Positions 1 through 5,521 of a stretch of 5,521 nucleotides of DNA are shown here, one piece after another. Every line of letters begins with the position of its first letter. Positions within the stretch are counted from its first letter, which is position 1. The position numbers were made by a program, and so were the translations under genes. The stretch lies in the UHGV virus genome UHGV-0380108. One strand, 5' to 3'. Source of the DNA: a virus. Below the pieces are notes generated by a model that did no database searches, was not told the DNA's origin, and worked only from the letters and a program-made list of their open reading frames with translations.

Positions 1-2
1 AA

Positions 3-374
3 AAACTATCGGCAGAAATCAGGAAGATAAACGCAGACGCATGCAGCGGAATGGCCCAAGCGGCATATTATTACGCAGCGGGCGAAGCCCAAAAAGCGGA
101 AGCAAAAATGCTTGAAGCGAAAAAGAGAACCGAGGAGGCAACCGCAGATCTGCGAGAACTTCAATATTGGACCGAAATAGCGAATACGATTATCAGACTG
201 GCACAAATAGTGGGGAACCTGGCAATCGGAGGGAAAACAGGAAAACTAATCAGAGAATACACGGAAAAAAGGATGAATGAAACACCCCCCAAAAATTCAT
301 CAACGGTAACGCAGCACTATGATCCAGAAATGAAATTTAAGGGAGTAGACAAAACTGTGACAACAAAATGGTAG
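3..374 (+). CDS. 3' portion of an ORF already open at the window start (frame 3, no stop from base 3 to TGG-TAG at 372..374). Most likely the C-terminal ~124 aa of the VP2-like pilot/minor capsid protein continuing from 4687..5521 across a circular junction. Otherwise an independent 107-aa ORF starting at ATG 51.
   Basis: Translating frame 3 from base 3 gives KLSAEIRKINADACSG-MAQAAYYY... with no stop upstream of the track's ATG at 51. The ORF at the 3' end of the window (4687..5521, frame 1) ends on codon position 1 (g). Joining g + aa (bases 1-2) gives GAA, and the next codon starts at base 3, so the two ORFs are in the same frame across a 5,521-nt circle. Composition is A/K/E-rich and helical, as expected for the distal part of a pilot protein. 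Confidence 0.5.
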   Translation, partial: KLSAEIRKINADACSGMAQAAYYYAAGEAQKAEAKMLEAKKRTEEATADLRELQYWTEIANTIIRLAQIVGNLAIGGKTGKLIREYTEKRMNETPPKNSSTVTQHYDPEMKFKGVDKTVTTKW

Positions 375-413
375 AAAAAACGATTTTAAAGGGGGAAAAT
401 TCAATTAAAAGCA

Positions 414-1682
414 GTGTGTCTATATCCAAGTATCATAGAGAACCCAAAGTACGCCAAATCGAATAAAAACGGCAAAAGGGCAAGGGATCGCCGTCTAAGG
501 TGGATCCAAATTCCATGTGGATATTGCGAAGAGTGCAGACGCGCAAAAGCAAATGAATGGAGAGTAAGATTGATGGAAGAAGTAAAAAATAATCCTAAAA
601 ACTCTATATTTGCAACGCTGACATTCTCCGAGGAAAGCCTAAAAAAACTAGAATATGACGAAAAAGAACCGAACAAAGCACCTCAGAAGGCAATCAGCCT
701 ATTCAGAAAACGATGGTGGAAAAAGTATAAAACACCACTCAAACACTGGCTAATCACAGAAATGGGGCATGACAACACCAAGAGGATACATCTGCACGGC
801 ATCATATGGACAGAACTAACAGAGGAACAGTTCGAAAAGGAATGGGGGTACGGCTGGATATTCTTTGGGTATGAAGTAAACGAGAAAACAATAAACTACA
901 TCGTAAAATATGTGACAAAGAGAGACGAAGATAATCCTGAATTCAACGGGAAGATATTCACTTCAAAAGGGATTGGAGCAAGCTATATAAACAAGTACTC
1001 GCTTAACAGGCATAGATATCAGGATAAATTTACAGAGGAAACATACAAGGCAGCTTCAGGAACAAGAATAGCGCTGCCGACATACTACAGGCAGAAAATA
1101 TGGACAGATCAAGAACGAGAGAACCTCCGAATCATAAAGGAGGAACAACAGGTGAGGTATTATAACAAAACCCCTATCAAAGTAGAAACACTAGAACAGT
1201 ATAAAGAGTATGTACACGCAGTAATATATTGGCAGTCAATTAAAAAGTATGACAGAAAGAGAAAAAAAAGAGATATGCAAAGGATATGCAGATCTAATCA
1301 TAAAGAAAGAAAAGTTAATCCGAGAAATATGGGAAGTAGAGTTTGCAATCAGAAAAATGGAAGATGTGCTGACGCGGAACAAGGTTATAAAGCCTTCGAA
1401 GGAAACATAGGGGACAGATCCAGTAATCTTGTAAAGCTGATCGGCGCAAACAGAGTGTCCCAACGGAACTTCAAATATGAGGGAACATACTACGTAACAG
1501 AGGATGGAGAGACGTACGACAAAGAATACGTAGACACTCATAAACCACTGAGAACCGGCATCGACTTCTACGAGGTGAGCAATTGGATATACAACGAAAG
1601 AAAACAATTGTACGAACCTATCGTCAGAAGGATAGTAATGATCAAAAACACCAACACTCAATTATCACTAAACTATGAATGA
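414..1682 (+). CDS. Rolling-circle replication initiation protein (Microviridae VP4 / phiX174 gpA-like HUH endonuclease), 422 aa, GTG start, with ~190-aa C-terminal extension
   Basis: N-terminus MCLYP... resembles the conserved M-x-C-x-x-P start of gokushovirus VP4, which supports GTG 414 as the start. A CxxC zinc-finger-like CGYCEECRRAK lies at aa 35-42. HUH motif I is FATLTF (nt 609..626), motif II is the H-x-H element HLHGIIW (nt 789..809), and motif III carries the catalytic tyrosines YIVKYVTK (nt 897..920). Downstream are SKGIG and LPTYYRQKIW elements typical of VP4. It is the only long + ORF in the region. The stop TGA at 1680..1682 overlaps the next ORF's start. Confidence 0.88.
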   Translation: MCLYPSIIENPKYAKSNKNGKRARDRRLRWIQIPCGYCEECRRAKANEWRVRLMEEVKNNPKNSIFATLTFSEESLKKLEYDEKEPNKAPQKAISLFRKRWWKKYKTPLKHWLITEMGHDNTKRIHLHGIIWTELTEEQFEKEWGYGWIFFGYEVNEKTINYIVKYVTKRDEDNPEFNGKIFTSKGIGASYINKYSLNRHRYQDKFTEETYKAASGTRIALPTYYRQKIWTDQERENLRIIKEEQQVRYYNKTPIKVETLEQYKEYVHAVIYWQSIKKYDRKRKKRDMQRICRSNHKERKVNPRNMGSRVCNQKNGRCADAEQGYKAFEGNIGDRSSNLVKLIGANRVSQRNFKYEGTYYVTEDGETYDKEYVDTHKPLRTGIDFYEVSNWIYNERKQLYEPIVRRIVMIKNTNTQLSLNYE

Positions 1683-1845
1683 AAAAGTAAAGAAGATCGT
1701 AAAATGGATCGCGGTAATCGCAGCTGCCATCGGCGCAGCAGCTGCCGTGATCATAGAACAGGGATGCACTCACAAGCACCACCTCAAGGCAAGCGGCATC
1801 AAAGTCGACACAATCGAAGTAACAACAACAACAAAAATTAAATAA
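1675..1845 (+). CDS. Small 56-aa protein with one predicted transmembrane helix (MNEKVKKIVKWIAVIAAAIGAAAAVIIEQGCTHKHHLKASGIKVDTIEVTTTTKIK); candidate membrane/lysis-associated protein
   Basis: ATG at 1675 lies in the overlap ATGAATGA with the Rep stop (1680..1682). The ORF is open in frame 1 to TAA at 1843..1845. A 20-residue uncharged hydrophobic stretch (nt ~1696..1755) is flanked by K-rich N-terminal and charged C-terminal segments. It is tightly packed against the next ORF (taa c ATG). It falls below the length threshold of the supplied ORF track. Confidence 0.45.
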   Translation: MNEKVKKIVKWIAVIAAAIGAAAAVIIEQGCTHKHHLKASGIKVDTIEVTTTTKIK

Positions 1846-1846
1846 C

Positions 1847-2152
1847 ATGAACAAAAAATTCAGAAATCAGCTACTCGCTGAAAGCGGAAAAAAAGAGGCA
1901 GAAATCAAAAGTGTAAACCTCGAAATCGAAGAAAGAGTAGAGTCGAAAAACGGCATATTCGTACTGGTCCGCAACAAGAAAAACAAATGGGTGATCACAA
2001 TGTGCGGCGCGATCATAAACGGAAAAGAATTCAACACTAAAGAGGAAGCTGAAGAACACATAGCTAAAAAAGAGTGGGAAGACATCCTGACCGCAACATT
2101 CGTATTCATCCTGCACGTAAACGGAGAAATGAAAAACACTGAAAAAGAATAA
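1847..2152 (+). CDS. Hypothetical protein, 101 aa (MNKKFRNQLLAESGKKEAEIKSV...), no recognisable family
   Basis: ATG lies 1 nt after the previous stop and ends 3 nt before the capsid gene start. Orientation and codon usage match the flanking phage genes. The N-terminus is K/E-rich and the C-terminal half is hydrophobic (ILTATFVFILHV). Its position between Rep and the major capsid gene is where small accessory/DNA-binding ORFs sit in gokushovirus-like genomes. Confidence 0.5.
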   Translation: MNKKFRNQLLAESGKKEAEIKSVNLEIEERVESKNGIFVLVRNKKNKWVITMCGAIINGKEFNTKEEAEEHIAKKEWEDILTATFVFILHVNGEMKNTEKE

Positions 2153-2155
2153 GCC

Positions 2156-4204
2156 ATGAAAAAAACACTAGGAGGAGACAGAATTCGAAGCGAAAGCAAA
2201 ATGGAAGTATATCTGCCTAATTTCGGCAGATCGTCTCACAACGTAGGAAAGATAATCCGAACATCACAGGCATGCGGCACGATCGTTCCCTATTGGTGTC
2301 AAATAGGTATGGATGGAACGACGTTCTACATCGATATCACAACGAAGGTGAAAACGCTGCCAACAACCGGGCCTGTATTCGGAAGCTTCAAACACCAGAT
2401 CGATGTATTCGTAATTCCGATCAGGCTCTACATAGCAGCGCTGCACAATAATGCTCTAGGAGTAGGGTTGAATATGGATAAAGTATTACTACCACAATTT
2501 CAAGTGTATACAGCTAATACGTCAATTTACGAAAACGACTTCAACAGAGGGCAAGTCAATCCAAGCTCGCTGCTCTCATACCTGGGGATAAAAGGGTTCG
2601 GATACTCCGAAGTCAATCAATACCTCCGAAGATTTCCTGCAATATTCAATCTGGCGTATTGGGATATATTCAAAAACTACTATGCAAATAAACAAGAAGA
2701 ATATGCATATGTAATCACTGGAATAAACCATATCTGGAAGTCGATCTTCATAGGAGATGGATACGTTTGGGATAAAGAATGGTACGAAAACTCAGACTTA
2801 CCATACGAGGTTACTCCGACAGAACAGAAACCAAAGTACATCAGACTGGAATTCGAGGAAAAGATCTCTCCCGAAGAAGTCGGTGAGATACAGTTCCTGA
2901 CAAATAATCCAAACACGCCAACAGTAGCAAGCAACAGGATAACAAAGCTTGGAGACTCCTTTGTGTTTGAACGAACAGATCCGGAGGCACCGGGACTTAG
3001 AGAACCGAGCAATCCGAGAAAGGCAACCAACGTTTACATGTACAAAATCAAGAAGCCCATTAAATTTGCATACAGAATAACCACAAGCAGCGGGGAGCAG
3101 ATGATAACAATGCCGGACAACAAGAAGATCCAGCTAACGCCATTTCCATTAAAAAACATCGACGATATGCGAACTTCAATACTGGCAGCTCCCAGTTCTT
3201 CGGCGTTTGTGATGGATAACAGCAAAATGCCGTACGCAGCAGCAACGAAAACTCTAGATCTGCCAAATCATGACTACTCAAAAACATATCACAGCTCAAA
3301 TGCATGGTATTCACAAGCAGGGCTGGCAGTGAAAACATATCTGAGCGACAGGTTCAACAATTGGCTGAACACAGAATGGATCGACGGAACAACAGGAGGA
3401 ATCAATGCGATTACGGCAGTAGATGTAAGCGACGGAAAACTCACTATGGACGCTCTAATTCTCCAGAAAAAAATATTCAATATGCTGAACCGCGTGGCTA
3501 TTACAGACGGCACCTACCAAGCATGGAGAGAGGCGACATACGGAATCAGAAGCGCAACACTACCCGAATCTCCTGTGTTCTGCGGCGGAATGCAAAGCGA
3601 AATCGCATTCGACGAAATTGTATCGAATTCGGCAACAGACGAAGAACCGCTGGGAACACTTGCCGGCCGAGGAGTTGCGACCATGTACAAATCCGGAAGA
3701 GGGTTAAAAATCAAATGTACAGAACCCAGTATAATCATGGCTCTAGGATCAATTACACCTCGAGTTGATTACAGCCAAGGCAACAAATGGTGGACAAGAC
3801 TGCAAAGCATGGATGACTTCCACAAACCAACATTAGACGCAATTGGGTTCCAAGAACTGATAGCAGAAGAAGCAGCTGCATGGAGTACGGAAACGACTGA
3901 GGACTACACACACACGTATCAATCACTAGGAAAACAGCCGTCATGGATCGAATACACAACGGATGTGAATGAAACATACGGCGACTTTGCCGCAGGAATG
4001 CCATTAGCATTTATGTGCTTGAACAGAGTGTACGAACAAGACGTGGACGGTACAATCGGCAATACCTCAACGTATATTGACCCTACGATATACAACAACA
4101 TATTTGCAGAGTCGAGAATGAGTTCGCAGAACTTCTGGGTACAAGTAGCATTCGATGTAACAGCACGCCGGGTAATGTCAGCAAAACAAATTCCAAATTT
4201 ATAA
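2156..4204 (+). CDS. Major capsid protein (Microviridae VP1 / phiX174 F-like single jelly-roll capsid protein), 682 aa
   Basis: It is the longest ORF in the window. The N-terminal region FGRSSHNVGKI...FVIPIRLY recalls the conserved N-terminal block of gokushovirus VP1 (RSxHSF...FFVPLRLIW), from memory. Size (600-780 aa) and position fit a microvirus VP1 carrying a large inserted surface loop. An alternative start at ATG 2201 (MEVYLPNF...) is possible, but the AGGAGG at 2169..2174 is 26 nt upstream of it and too far to act as an SD. Confidence 0.88.
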   Translation: MKKTLGGDRIRSESKMEVYLPNFGRSSHNVGKIIRTSQACGTIVPYWCQIGMDGTTFYIDITTKVKTLPTTGPVFGSFKHQIDVFVIPIRLYIAALHNNALGVGLNMDKVLLPQFQVYTANTSIYENDFNRGQVNPSSLLSYLGIKGFGYSEVNQYLRRFPAIFNLAYWDIFKNYYANKQEEYAYVITGINHIWKSIFIGDGYVWDKEWYENSDLPYEVTPTEQKPKYIRLEFEEKISPEEVGEIQFLTNNPNTPTVASNRITKLGDSFVFERTDPEAPGLREPSNPRKATNVYMYKIKKPIKFAYRITTSSGEQMITMPDNKKIQLTPFPLKNIDDMRTSILAAPSSSAFVMDNSKMPYAAATKTLDLPNHDYSKTYHSSNAWYSQAGLAVKTYLSDRFNNWLNTEWIDGTTGGINAITAVDVSDGKLTMDALILQKKIFNMLNRVAITDGTYQAWREATYGIRSATLPESPVFCGGMQSEIAFDEIVSNSATDEEPLGTLAGRGVATMYKSGRGLKIKCTEPSIIMALGSITPRVDYSQGNKWWTRLQSMDDFHKPTLDAIGFQELIAEEAAAWSTETTEDYTHTYQSLGKQPSWIEYTTDVNETYGDFAAGMPLAFMCLNRVYEQDVDGTIGNTSTYIDPTIYNNIFAESRMSSQNFWVQVAFDVTARRVMSAKQIPNL

Positions 4205-4208
4205 CACC

Positions 4209-4532
4209 ATGAAAACAGCAATAAATAGAAAAGGATGCATCAACAATCCAAAACTCACATACCAAGCAGAACCAAGGGAGGTAAAACTGAGAAAAATAAT
4301 CAGCGGAGAATCCAACAATATGGATGACGGGGTATTCCCAACAATTTACACAGAAAAGAAAGACGGAGTACTGCCCGAGTATGACATAAGAACAGATCGA
4401 TTTGAGATAGCAATAGACGCGATGGATAAAATCAACCAGAGCACAGCGAACCAGATCGCGAAGAACAAGGGCGAAACTGAAAGCGTGAAAACTTTCGGGA
4501 CAGAAGTAAAAACCGATCCCGAAAAGAGCTAA
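4209..4532 (+). CDS. Hypothetical 107-aa acidic protein; possibly an internal scaffolding protein (VP3-like)
   Basis: ATG lies 4 nt after the capsid stop. Same strand and codon bias as the neighbours. The segment VLPEYDIRTDRFEIAIDAMDKI loosely resembles the P-x-Y-G/D-D...Y-x-E-A-x-N core I recall from gokushovirus VP3 scaffold proteins. That recollection is weak, so the product call is tentative. Confidence 0.45.
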   Translation: MKTAINRKGCINNPKLTYQAEPREVKLRKIISGESNNMDDGVFPTIYTEKKDGVLPEYDIRTDRFEIAIDAMDKINQSTANQIAKNKGETESVKTFGTEVKTDPEKS

Positions 4533-4561
4533 AGCAGTCGTATAAAGATCTACCAAAAACC

Positions 4562-4593
4562 AAAGAGGGGGGATATTTCCGCCCCCCTCTTTT
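4562..4593 (+). terminator. Perfect 11-bp G/C-rich hairpin (AAAGAGGGGGG / CCCCCCTCTTT, 9-nt loop ATATTTCCG) followed by T; candidate intrinsic terminator and/or structural origin or packaging element
   Basis: Bases 4562..4572 are the exact reverse complement of 4582..4592, with six consecutive G:C pairs. An A-tract lies upstream and TCTTTT downstream. The hairpin sits in the only substantial non-coding region of the genome (4533..4686), 30 nt after the stop of the 107-aa ORF. Confidence 0.5.
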
Positions 4594-4597
4594 AACC

Positions 4598-4611
4598 CTC
4601 GTAAATACGAG
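4598..4611. promoter_or_regulatory. 14-bp perfect palindrome CTCGTAAATACGAG, a candidate dyad-symmetric protein-binding site
   Basis: CTCGTA (4598..4603) is the reverse complement of TACGAG (4606..4611), with a 2-nt centre. It lies immediately 3' of the GC hairpin and upstream of the VP2 gene start. Confidence 0.25.
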
Positions 4612-4680
4612 TGACACAGTGCGGTAGACGTTTATACATATATAACGAGAACATAAGGTATAAATTCTTTTTAGAAAAGA
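4611..4680 (+). promoter_or_regulatory. Candidate promoter region for the VP2-Rep-capsid transcription unit
   Basis: GTGACA (4611..4616), a 5/6 match to the sigma-70 -35 TTGACA, is followed after 16 nt by TATACA (4633..4638) inside an AT-rich run TTTATACATATATAAC. A second TATAAAT lies at 4659..4665, about 22 nt upstream of ATG 4687. No Shine-Dalgarno sequence precedes this start or most other starts in the window. Confidence 0.2.
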
Positions 4681-4686
4681 ACGAAA

Positions 4687-5521
4687 ATGGACTTCAAAAA
4701 ACTACTAGAACTACTCGAGAAAGGAAGCAGCATGATGAACCCTATCTCAGGTATCATTGGCAACGCATCGGGAATTCTCAATATGCTAGGCATAGGCAGG
4801 AAAAAACAGATACAGCAGCAGAAAGAAATGGTGGAGAACGCAGCTCAAATAAACTACAAATACGGAGAAATGGCGGCGGAGAACGCGTTCGAAAGGCAGC
4901 AGGTGTTATATAACAGAACCTACCAAGACCAAAGCTACGCCAACCAAGTTGCACAAATGGATGCGGCAGGATTATCTCCCGGCCTAATGTACGGCAAAGG
5001 AGGTGCCGGAGGCGGAGGCGCCGGTTCAACAACAGGTGCTCCAATAGGAGCAACAGGAGCTGCCGGTGCAGGAGCAGCGGCCGATCCAAACATGCAGCTG
5101 CAGGCACTGATGTCCCTGCGACAAATACGAATGAATGAACGGAAGAATGAAGCGGAAATCAATCTGCTCAATACGCAGGCAGAGGCACTCAAGGCGGAGG
5201 CAGGCAAGAACCAGGAGGAAACCCAGTCAATAATTGAAAAGAGACTATGGGAAGTAAAGCAAGAGATGTTTAAAGGATGGAAAGGCTTCATCGATACAGC
5301 GAACCAACTGTGGGATCAGATGGTAAAATGGCAGCCCACAGAAAAGGTAACAATCGACGGCAAGGAGGTAGAAGTACCGAAATACTTCGAAATAGAAGAT
5401 GATAAATTCGGGAAGATCATATTTGGAGAGGAATCATTTCAAGGCGGCATGATGAAGGCCGAAAAGCAAATCCTCGAGGGAACAGCAGCAATTAAAACTC
5501 TAGAAAGCATATACGCAGACG
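4687..5521 (+). CDS. DNA pilot / minor capsid protein (Microviridae VP2, phiX174 H-like), 5' portion (278 codons), running off the 3' end of the window
   Basis: No stop occurs in frame 1 from ATG 4687 to the window end. The translation MDFKKLLELLEKGSSMMNPISGIIGN...QIQQQKEMVENAAQINYKYGEMAAENAFERQQVLYNRTYQDQSYANQVAQMDAAGLSPGLMYGKGGAGGGGAGSTTGAPIGATGAAGAGAAADPNMQ... carries the gokushovirus-VP2 hallmarks I recall: a Q-rich segment, AGL(N/S)PxLMYG and a Gly/Ala-rich linker, followed by a coiled-coil-like E/K/Q-rich region. The ORF is missing from the supplied track only because it lacks a stop inside the window. Confidence 0.8.
   Translation, partial: MDFKKLLELLEKGSSMMNPISGIIGNASGILNMLGIGRKKQIQQQKEMVENAAQINYKYGEMAAENAFERQQVLYNRTYQDQSYANQVAQMDAAGLSPGLMYGKGGAGGGGAGSTTGAPIGATGAAGAGAAADPNMQLQALMSLRQIRMNERKNEAEINLLNTQAEALKAEAGKNQEETQSIIEKRLWEVKQEMFKGWKGFIDTANQLWDQMVKWQPTEKVTIDGKEVEVPKYFEIEDDKFGKIIFGEESFQGGMMKAEKQILEGTAAIKTLESIYAD

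Follow-up and report, generated by a model that had tools for sequence, protein, structure and literature searches.

Probable complete genome of an uncultivated gut microvirus whose Rep frame is fused to the next gene by stop codon loss

The virus genome UHGV-0380108, a stretch of 5,521 nucleotides (nt) that we analyzed over its full length and call the window, is in all likelihood (about 85% by our estimate) the complete circular genome of an uncultivated microvirus (Microviridae, non-Bullavirinae) from an unnamed, Bacteroidales-associated lineage found commonly in the guts of humans and animals. Its open reading frame (ORF) of 422 amino acids (aa), which reads as an unusually long Rep, is a composite: a rolling-circle replication initiator (VP4/Rep) of ∼285 to 303 aa is fused, via loss of a stop codon, to a downstream 117-aa gene, and an overprinted gene in the +1 frame lies between them. 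As a discovery this is minor, because gut microviruses of this type are abundant and the species group is already represented in IMG/VR and NCBI TPA; its practical use lies in correcting the gene model of a microvirus very common in the human gut, to eight genes and a Rep well short of 422 aa.

Circular genome and gene content

The source contig (L007; ENA ERZ1755515; 5,576 nt) consists of the window plus a repeat of its first 55 nt. A contig from another sample and another assembler (L006) is 100% identical, has a terminal overlap of 109 nt, and again yields a unit of 5,521 nt. Twenty-one IMG/VR relatives are self-closing, with units of 5,522 to 5,535 nt, and once the window is closed the VP2 frame runs unbroken across the 5521/1 junction. 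A preliminary description, made from the letters of the window alone, had proposed a near-complete or complete Microviridae genome with all genes on one strand; closure of the circle in two independent assemblies, together with profile matches for VP1, VP2, and VP4, bears this out. That description had also suggested profile searches for these three Microviridae proteins, all of which gave matches, and had raised the choice between a free circle and host-flanked DNA, which falls to a free circle that is not a piece of a larger element.

From the six-frame ORF list and a circular ORF scan, we derived a model of eight genes: VP4/Rep, VP1, VP2, and five small genes whose products have 53 (overprinted), 117, 56, 101, and 107 aa. 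All are codirectional on the + strand, as is every frame under selection; the own-frame ratio of nonsynonymous to synonymous variation (pN/pS, calculated frame by frame) is 0.13 to 0.41 for every gene. Coding density is 96%. The small ORFs lie 1, 3, and 4 nt apart, with an 8-nt overlap between Rep and the 56-aa ORF and 39 nt (375 to 413) between VP2 and Rep. The ORF coordinates and sizes given earlier were all right, as were the gaps of 1 to 4 nt and the length of the 154-nt noncoding region. The A-rich coding strand and the start codons without Shine-Dalgarno sequences were also correctly noted: the + strand is 39% A and 18% T, and a 4-nt Shine-Dalgarno core within 20 nt upstream was found at none of the eight start codons. 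This base composition leaves the minus strand poor in stop codons, so long minus-strand ORFs are expected by chance; those present (up to 157 aa; for example, 4083 to 4556 and 1236 to 1661) had no family matches, nor did a 154-aa + strand ORF inside VP1 (3304 to 3768).

Pfam and PHROG profile searches of the window ORFs found neither an integrase nor a peptidase or amidase. With the att cores of Dysgonomonas prophages and Escherichia coli dif as queries, no dif-like site was found in the window, the best matches having at least 10 mismatches in 28 positions. A σ70 promoter scan gave fewer sites than in shuffled sequence, and an Rfam search gave no matching family. The phage appears to be nonintegrating, as it lacks both an integrase and a dif-like site and its close relatives occur solely as free circles.

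The two structural proteins are recognizable by profile, in agreement with the ∼680-aa capsid protein and the Gly-rich VP2-type pilot protein proposed earlier. VP1 matches PF02305 (Phage_F) at 38.4 bits (cutoff, 25; 8.5e-10) and phrog_514 at 6e-39, and in a profile comparison with solved structures its sole match was the capsid of gokushovirus EC6098 (8DES, 1e-14). It is least conserved at about aa 190 to 330, presumably a surface insertion. VP2 matches seven PHROG families annotated "pilot protein for DNA ejection" (E, 1.3e-6 to 1.2e-3), with no Pfam match, and shows 33 to 40% identity to the genes annotated "DNA pilot protein" in relatives. An uninterrupted VP2 of 402 aa occurs in relatives. 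In the window it has a hydrophobic N-terminal segment (aa 20 to 37; nt 4744 to 4797) and a Gly/Ala-rich tract (aa 103 to 132; nt 4993 to 5082).

The 422-aa Rep frame and its stop codon loss

Rep matches PF23343 at 43.2 bits (cutoff, 27.8; 5e-11) and phrog_942 at 1e-32. It carries a Cys cluster (aa 35 to 41), motif I as FATLTF (aa 66 to 71; nt 609 to 626), the HUH motif as HLH (aa 126 to 128; nt 789 to 797), and a two-Tyr motif, YIVKYVTK (aa 162 to 169; nt 897 to 920), the last three being invariant in the Rep alignment; the HLH motif and the profile matches confirm the earlier call of a Rep with HUH motifs. Of 22 genomes, 11 start Rep with GTG and 11 with ATG.

Codon 286 of the long frame (1269 to 1271) is AGA in the window and TGA in most relatives, with further relatives stopping at codon 289 or 298; codon 304 (1323 to 1325), also AGA in the window, is TGA in the nearest type, where it is the single stop. 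Altogether the Rep frame stops after 285, 288, 297, or 303 codons in 41 of 41 relatives and then reopens for 119 to 121 codons (up to 134 in three genomes), and gene calls on relatives divide the corresponding ORF into 303 plus 118 aa or into 285 plus 80 plus 118 aa. Pooled over 36 sequences, pN/pS at positions 1101 to 1247 is 0.13 in the Rep frame and 2.00 in the +1 frame; the values are 1.07 and 0.16 at 1249 to 1328, 1.18 and 0.34 at 1329 to 1400, and 0.41 and 0.88 at 1411 to 1679. The overprinted +1-frame ORF is open in all 41 relatives, where it bridges the gap in the Rep frame with ∼70 codons (69 to 73 in most); a 6-nt deletion shortens it in the window strain. Its 53-aa product is helical and basic and has no family match. 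All 22 genomes retain the ATG at 1329, which begins the 117-aa gene, including those in which the overlapping +1-frame codon varies; the 117-aa product, too, has no family match. The stop-loss mutation carried by the window strain is viable. Because Rep is here fused to the next gene through a lost stop, the functional Rep is shorter than VP4 of Chp2 (336 aa), and the preliminary claim of a Rep larger than in classical gokushoviruses does not hold: the domain ends at about aa 285.

Two further observations concern the same place. A run of eight A residues lies at 1262 to 1269, where the Rep of relatives ends and the overprinted gene begins; relatives have seven A residues followed by G or T. 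Four relatives (L013, L056, L035, and L045) carry tandem duplications or insertions of 100 to 310 nt at the 3′ end of Rep and in the overprinted gene (approximately window 1200 to 1420). The dif-like att sites of prophage relatives lie in this part of the genome as well, between VP4 and the small ORFs, which suggests a zone of plasticity.

A truly enlarged Rep, in which the C-terminal ∼120 aa form a functional Rep domain, is an unlikely alternative to the fusion. The 422-aa ORF is unbroken in at least three independent assemblies or samples of the window strain, and fused forms recur in two other protein clusters (P0121, 423 aa, 53 members; P0122, 370 aa, 18 members), both points in its favor; yet unfused Rep clusters number up to 4,338 members, every one of the 41 relatives examined has the stop, and the linker is almost wholly different between fused variants. 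In that linker, purifying selection is absent from the Rep frame and acts on the +1-frame gene that fills it, the downstream gene has its own conserved ATG, and the C-terminal part adds nothing to the profile score, since PHROG gives Rep 115.1 bits for aa 1 to 285 and equally for all 422 aa. A prophage, or a piece of some larger element, would replace the free circle itself, and this we consider extremely improbable. An 11.6-kilobase (kb) JGI contig (L009, the same as L074) places a near-identical relative beside Bacteroidetes-type integrase genes, on a 14.25-kb contig (L065) a relative is continuous with other phage genes, and distant relatives are true prophages. However, L009 holds one full microvirus unit, both ends of which coincide with poly-G tracts in the sequence coding for the Gly-rich part of VP2 (joins at contig positions 1 to 60 and 5500 to 5560, corresponding to about window 5018 to 5047), and L065 holds one unit plus a 42-nt self-overlap at 3.9× coverage, broken inside VP2 (join at contig 8600 to 8800, about window 4869) and flanked by genes of double-stranded DNA phages (DNA polymerase A and σ70). 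Both are assembly chimeras. The other long contigs, L012 (11.2 kb) and L014 (8.1 kb), are head-to-tail concatemers, and every long contig with a close relative is thus traced to a concatemer or a chimera, whereas the window and 21 IMG/VR relatives self-close. The finding carries a caution: the long contigs on which integrases or other phage genes seem to adjoin this phage are chimeras broken inside VP2.

Lineage and host

Among GenBank phages, VP1 is closest to those of bajarodmic virus 724 (PQ006946, rodent feces; 57% identity) and MG945452 (Microviridae sp. 7879-1612, civet feces; 55%); other microviruses from rodent, lemur, bird, human, and Ciona guts are at 41 to 49%. In public assemblies the species group itself comprises more than 120 VP1 clusters at 86 to 100% identity, nearly all on contigs of 5.5 to 5.7 kb. 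Members of the unnamed gut lineage have VP1 proteins 38 to 57% identical over aa 1 to 682 and share the core gene order, and the window has the lineage traits: the 107-aa gene after VP1, the 101-aa gene before it, and a GGTAGACG..TATAACAAGAA block in the noncoding region. Given this number of VP1 clusters, and Rep clusters with thousands of members, "divergent lineage" in the preliminary description was an overstatement; its suggestion of a gut association agrees with the record names of relatives (HMP; "human.gut.metagenome").

The sequence comparisons suggest that the window lies within the suborder "Gokushovirineae" (Kirchberger 2022) but outside Gokushovirinae proper and, on one proxy reference, outside Alpavirinae, so "gokushovirus-like" stands in the broadest sense and fails in the strict one. 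Strict membership in Gokushovirinae, with the window merely divergent, was the first interpretation and is very unlikely. Its core order VP1-VP2-VP4 is that of Chp2 and phiMH2K, no spike (G) or external scaffold (D) genes occur among its ORFs, the sole structure matched is that of a gokushovirus, and Rep is 23 to 28% identical to VP4 of Chp2 and phiMH2K. On the other side, tblastn with VP1 against Chp2 and phiMH2K gave no match at E ≤ 1e-3, and the VP1 profile aligns to Chp2 over 184 of 674 columns only, at 23% identity, which falls short of 30% identity along most of the protein to either of these references (SpV4 not being among them). No VP3 or VP5 homologues were found, the genome is ∼1 kb longer, and Kirchberger 2022 sets several Bacteroidetes-linked families beside Family 3 (the gokushoviruses): Table S4 of that study lists separate families 4, 5, 6, 8, 10, 12, 15, and 18, of which Families 4, 5, and 6 predominate in human guts. 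An alpavirus (Alpavirinae, Kirchberger Family 5), a member of the classical Bacteroides/Prevotella microvirus group, is improbable as well. The host phylum, as we infer it, would be the same; only VP1, VP2, and VP4 are recognizable, with a conserved ORF after VP1, as in Alpavirinae (PMC3394797, PMC3091885); VP1 of phiHBP1, a B. fragilis phage, can be aligned with the VP1 profile from one end to the other; and Roux 2012 drew Alpavirinae broadly, with human-gut subgroups. Yet VP1 is only ∼20% identical to that of phiHBP1, below the 30% family threshold of Kirchberger 2022, where phiHBP1 serves as the single proxy for Alpavirinae, chosen by its layout, with no BMV prophage sequence in the comparison. 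Rep has 285 to 303 aa versus 539 aa in phiHBP1, the window has no M15 peptidase and no dif-like site, only free circles occur among its close relatives, and the ORF that phiHBP1 has at the same position bears no relation to the 107-aa family (no detectable similarity in profile-profile comparison; probability, <1%). As to a numbered family for the gut lineage, MG945452 and its relatives are absent from the part of Table S1 (Kirchberger 2022) that covers Families 1, 10 to 19, and 2 and part of Family 3, which is consistent with the remainder of Family 3 through Family 9; neither the lemur paper nor the phiHBP1 paper gives a usable numbered-family assignment.

We scanned one genome per prokaryotic species with the VP1 profile. 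Integrated relatives with VP1 proteins 38 to 45% identical to that of the window were found in Dysgonomonas macrotermitis DSM 27370 (265-kb contig), Dysgonomonas sp. 521 (73 kb), a Paludibacteraceae metagenome-assembled genome (MAG; 104 kb), and a Phocaeicola MAG (44 kb). The order in these prophages is host, small ORFs, VP1, 107-aa-family gene, VP2, VP4, host. Direct repeats spaced 6.0 to 6.3 kb apart (for example, AATTAAACATAATAGTAATTATGTAACA) flank three of the four, namely, the two Dysgonomonas prophages and that of the Paludibacteraceae MAG (L026, 8664 to 8694 and 14721 to 14751; L024, 2660 to 2687 and 8662 to 8689; L022, 8518 to 8541 and 14812 to 14835); no flanking repeat was found on the Phocaeicola contig. 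The Dysgonomonas repeats have the palindromic arms typical of dif, and the Paludibacteraceae repeat is less obviously dif-like. These repeats agree with the XerC/D integration route proposed for Bacteroidales microvirus prophages (PMC3091885), and the dif-flanked Dysgonomonas and Paludibacteraceae prophages extend the XerC/D-type pattern beyond the alpaviruses of Bacteroides and Prevotella. In the Dysgonomonas prophages, the ORF upstream of VP1 (L026, 9573 to 9989; L024, 3511 to 3936) looks peptidase- or amidase-like by eye and stands in place of the 101-aa-family gene. The host of the window phage is probably a member of the Bacteroidales, because it has integrated Bacteroidales relatives and no Shine-Dalgarno cores at its eight starts; the Bacteroidetes-type host that the preliminary description had offered as a guess is thus plausible.

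Small genes, noncoding region, and candidate origin

Table 1. Coordinates of genes and other features in the window (all on the + strand)
Feature	Position	Strand	Basis
VP2/DNA pilot protein, C-terminal 124 codons plus stop	1..374	+	In-frame continuation across the circle junction
Full Rep ORF, 422 aa, GTG start	414..1682	+	ORF scan
VP4/rolling-circle replication initiator proper (aa 1 to 285)	414..1268	+	GTG start; profile matches, motifs; pN/pS 0.13
Overprinted 53-aa gene, +1 frame relative to Rep	1249..1410	+	ATG kept in 22/22; +1-frame selection
Read-through linker of the 422-aa ORF	1269..1328	+	AGA at codons where relatives have TGA; no purifying selection in the Rep frame
117-aa gene (118 to 120 aa in relatives), separate in relatives, fused in frame to Rep here	1329..1682	+	ATG conservation; pN/pS 0.41
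56-aa protein, basic, with a single strongly hydrophobic segment (aa 9 to 27)	1675..1845	+	pN/pS 0.14 in own frame
101-aa conserved gene directly upstream of VP1	1847..2152	+	pN/pS 0.31
VP1 major capsid protein, 682 aa	2156..4204	+	PF02305, phrog_514; pN/pS 0.19
107-aa conserved gene immediately after VP1	4209..4532	+	pN/pS 0.15
Only sizeable noncoding region, 154 nt	4533..4686	+	Single-stranded DNA fold; conservation
GC-rich hairpin AAAGAGGGGGG / CCCCCCTCTTT, then T residues	4562..4592	+	Fold; conserved stem
Near-invariant block CGGTAGACGTTTATACATATATAACGAGAA (∼27 nt)	4622..4651	+	Conservation 0.991 across 22 genomes
VP2/DNA pilot protein, N-terminal 278 codons	4687..5521	+	Wrapped ORF, 402 aa in total; pN/pS 0.13

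The gene immediately after VP1 (Table 1) is kept in 11 of 11 aligned relatives, including prophages, and its 107-aa product has the central motif P.IYT.K.DGV.P.YDIRTDRFEIA.EAMDKV. A conserved ORF in this place has been proposed as a VP3-like scaffold in Bacteroidales microviruses (PMC3091885, PMC3394797), and by analogy of position the product is a candidate internal scaffolding protein. We rejected it as a VP3 homologue: the profile-profile probability versus VP3 of Chp2 and phiMH2K was 0.4%, and there was no Pfam match. This agrees with the absence of a separate VP3 from the preliminary description, as no VP3 homologue was recognizable in Pfam, PHROG, or profile-profile comparisons. Homologues of the 101-aa gene occupy the same site, directly before VP1, in bajarodmic virus 724, MG945452, MG945511, bajarodmic virus 18, Dulem virus 222, OP549871, and the Paludibacteraceae prophage; its identification as VP5 was likewise rejected, the profile-profile probability for the family versus gokushovirus VP5 being 0.3%. 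The 56-aa protein reaches a maximum 19-residue Kyte-Doolittle hydropathy of 2.33 and has an isoelectric point of 9.7. Because it is hydrophobic and basic, and the genome encodes no lytic enzyme, we suggest it as a candidate membrane or lysis protein.

The noncoding region is the most conserved feature among 22 genomes (0.934). Folded as single-stranded DNA, it has a closing stem (4540 to 4554 with 4623 to 4637) that encloses the GC-rich hairpin, with a fold z-score of −4.7 versus shuffled sequence. Within the species group the stem of the GC-rich hairpin is fixed and its loop variable; distant relatives have a hairpin in the same place with an unrelated sequence in each lineage. In the window the hairpin is followed by T residues and lies downstream of both VP1 and the 107-aa gene; it resembles an intrinsic terminator, one that would end the capsid transcript. 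A T tract and then an A tract (TTTTT..AAAAA) lie within 4652 to 4686, immediately 5′ of the VP2 start, and recur in most relatives shown, including distant ones.

The near-invariant block occurs once in the window. Its 5′ half takes part in the closing stem, and its AT-rich 3′ half (ATATATAACAAGAA) is single stranded in the fold. It is kept in relatives whose VP1 proteins are only 46 to 57% identical. In a degenerate form it has 35 exact matches among 2.9 million IMG/VR contigs, at one copy per genome, all on microvirus-size contigs (plus the chimeric 11.6-kb contig) and including Dulem-222-like genomes with VP1 46% identical. The fold architecture recurs in five relatives with VP1 46 to 57% identical (z-scores, −3.4 to −7.7), in which the closing stem uses sequence just 3′ of the stop codon of the 107-aa gene; the GGTAGACG..TATAACAAGAA block and the noncoding architecture are common to PQ006946, MG945452, MG945511, bajarodmic virus 18, and Dulem virus 222. 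MH572526 and OP549871 have a related AT-rich core only, the Ciona and Dysgonomonas relatives have the corresponding AT-rich core in a hairpin loop, and prophage members have a reduced version of the block motif only.

From its conservation and placement, we suggest the block as a candidate (+)-strand origin, where Rep would recognize and nick the DNA; the candidate nick stretch under this proposal is ATATATAACGAGAA. More tentatively, it could be the Rep nick site of the whole Bacteroidales-associated lineage, an intergenic origin beside a terminator or priming hairpin. A search for relevant literature on gokushovirus replication origins found none. The window offers a testable candidate origin and terminator for a lineage with no mapped origin.

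Taking phiX174 and the gokushoviruses as models, a life cycle can be sketched. Sixty copies of VP1 would form a T=1 capsid with the variable insertion (about aa 190 to 330) exposed on its surface, and VP2 would pilot the DNA into the cell. Rep would then nick the (+) strand at the origin, the AT-rich single-stranded block presented beside the stem, and so start rolling-circle replication. The terminator-like hairpin in the noncoding region may end the capsid transcript, the conserved 107-aa product may act as the internal scaffold, and the 56-aa membrane protein may bring about lysis. In phiX174 and G4, hairpins of the F-G intergenic region function in complementary-strand priming, and the noncoding hairpins of the window might also serve this purpose.

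Several points weigh against this overall interpretation. The scaffold, lysis, and origin assignments draw on position, composition, and conservation only, and no homology to characterized VP3, E, or ori sequences was found. The conserved noncoding block could instead be a promoter or operator, which is the main alternative; a Bacteroides-type −7/−33 promoter was not found in the noncoding region by eye. Assembly cannot reveal whether the genome is single stranded. As for the host, the nearest host-linked relatives share only 38 to 45% VP1 identity, and the support for a Bacteroidales host of this species is indirect. A lone 5.67-kb, circularly overlapping contig (L020; NZ_JACWEU010000076.1) with VP1 83% identical occurs in the assembly of an Acinetobacter lwoffii isolate (SU1904), and a small lone contig of a relative occurs in a Faecalimonas MAG. 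Lone contigs in host assemblies are a known source of error (PMC9239249), and both are probably contamination or mis-binning (or, for Acinetobacter, index bleed) and not evidence of the host.

Comparison with known systems

The human-gut relatives in IMG/VR, ENA, Logan, and NCBI TPA (for example, IMGVR_UViG_3300029621_000112 and the nr entries "MAG TPA: Replication associated protein [Microviridae sp.]") belong to the same species group as the window. Their VP1 proteins are 86 to 92% and their Rep proteins 85 to 92% identical to those of the window, and they share its genes, its noncoding region, and its circle size; they differ in the stop that ends Rep after aa 285 to 303 in all 41, where the window strain has the fusion.

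Farther away are the GenBank phages bajarodmic virus 724, MG945452, MG945511, bajarodmic virus 18, Dulem virus 222, OP549871, and MH572526, with genomes of 5.5 to 6.0 kb and VP1 and Rep proteins 41 to 57% and 40 to 50% identical, respectively, to those of the window. They have the same circular order of VP1, a gene of ∼105 to 130 aa, noncoding region, VP2, VP4, and small ORFs; all seven carry a homologue of the 107-aa gene, and one of the 101-aa gene was found in all but MH572526. They are nevertheless different species or genera, with nucleotide identity of at most 68% over a third of the genome. Their Rep proteins have 303 to 354 aa and end at a stop, and the 53-aa and 117-aa genes are specific to the close clade of the window.

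The Bacteroidales prophages resemble the window in the order VP1, 107-aa-family gene, VP2, VP4 and at 38 to 45% VP1 identity, with a Rep of ∼310 to 340 aa. Unlike the window, they are integrated, with dif-like repeats between VP4 and the small ORFs, and the Dysgonomonas prophages have a peptidase- or amidase-like ORF upstream of VP1 that the window lacks. Alpavirinae, described from BMV prophages (Krupovic & Forterre 2011; Roux 2012) and represented here by phiHBP1 (PV598014), an isolate from B. fragilis with an alpavirus-like layout (PMC13064476), share with the window a Bacteroidales association and a genome longer than those of gokushoviruses. VP1 of phiHBP1 is 22% identical to that of the window over the C-terminal 280 aa by tblastn (20% end to end by profile), and its Rep is 31% identical over 75 aa only, the window Rep being about half as long.

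With Gokushovirinae (Chp2, phiMH2K, and EC6098) and phiX174, the window shares a HUH/two-Tyr Rep, an F/VP1-type capsid protein, an H/VP2 pilot protein, a one-strand layout, overprinted genes near or inside Rep, and intergenic hairpins after the capsid gene. It differs from Gokushovirinae and Bullavirinae in having no VP3, VP5, VP8, G, or D homologues; its VP1 matches those of gokushoviruses in the C-terminal third only and shows no profile alignment with phiX174 F, and similarity of its Rep to that of phiX174 was not detected. The Rep fusion and overprinted gene are superficially like the A/A* genes of phiX174 with B and K nested in them. Apart from the origin proposal, one might speculate, with the same reserve, that the fusion, the internal start, and the overprinted gene offer a snapshot of phiX174-like A/A*/B/K nesting as it arises. 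The origin of phiX174 lies inside gene A, whereas the candidate origin of the window is intergenic.

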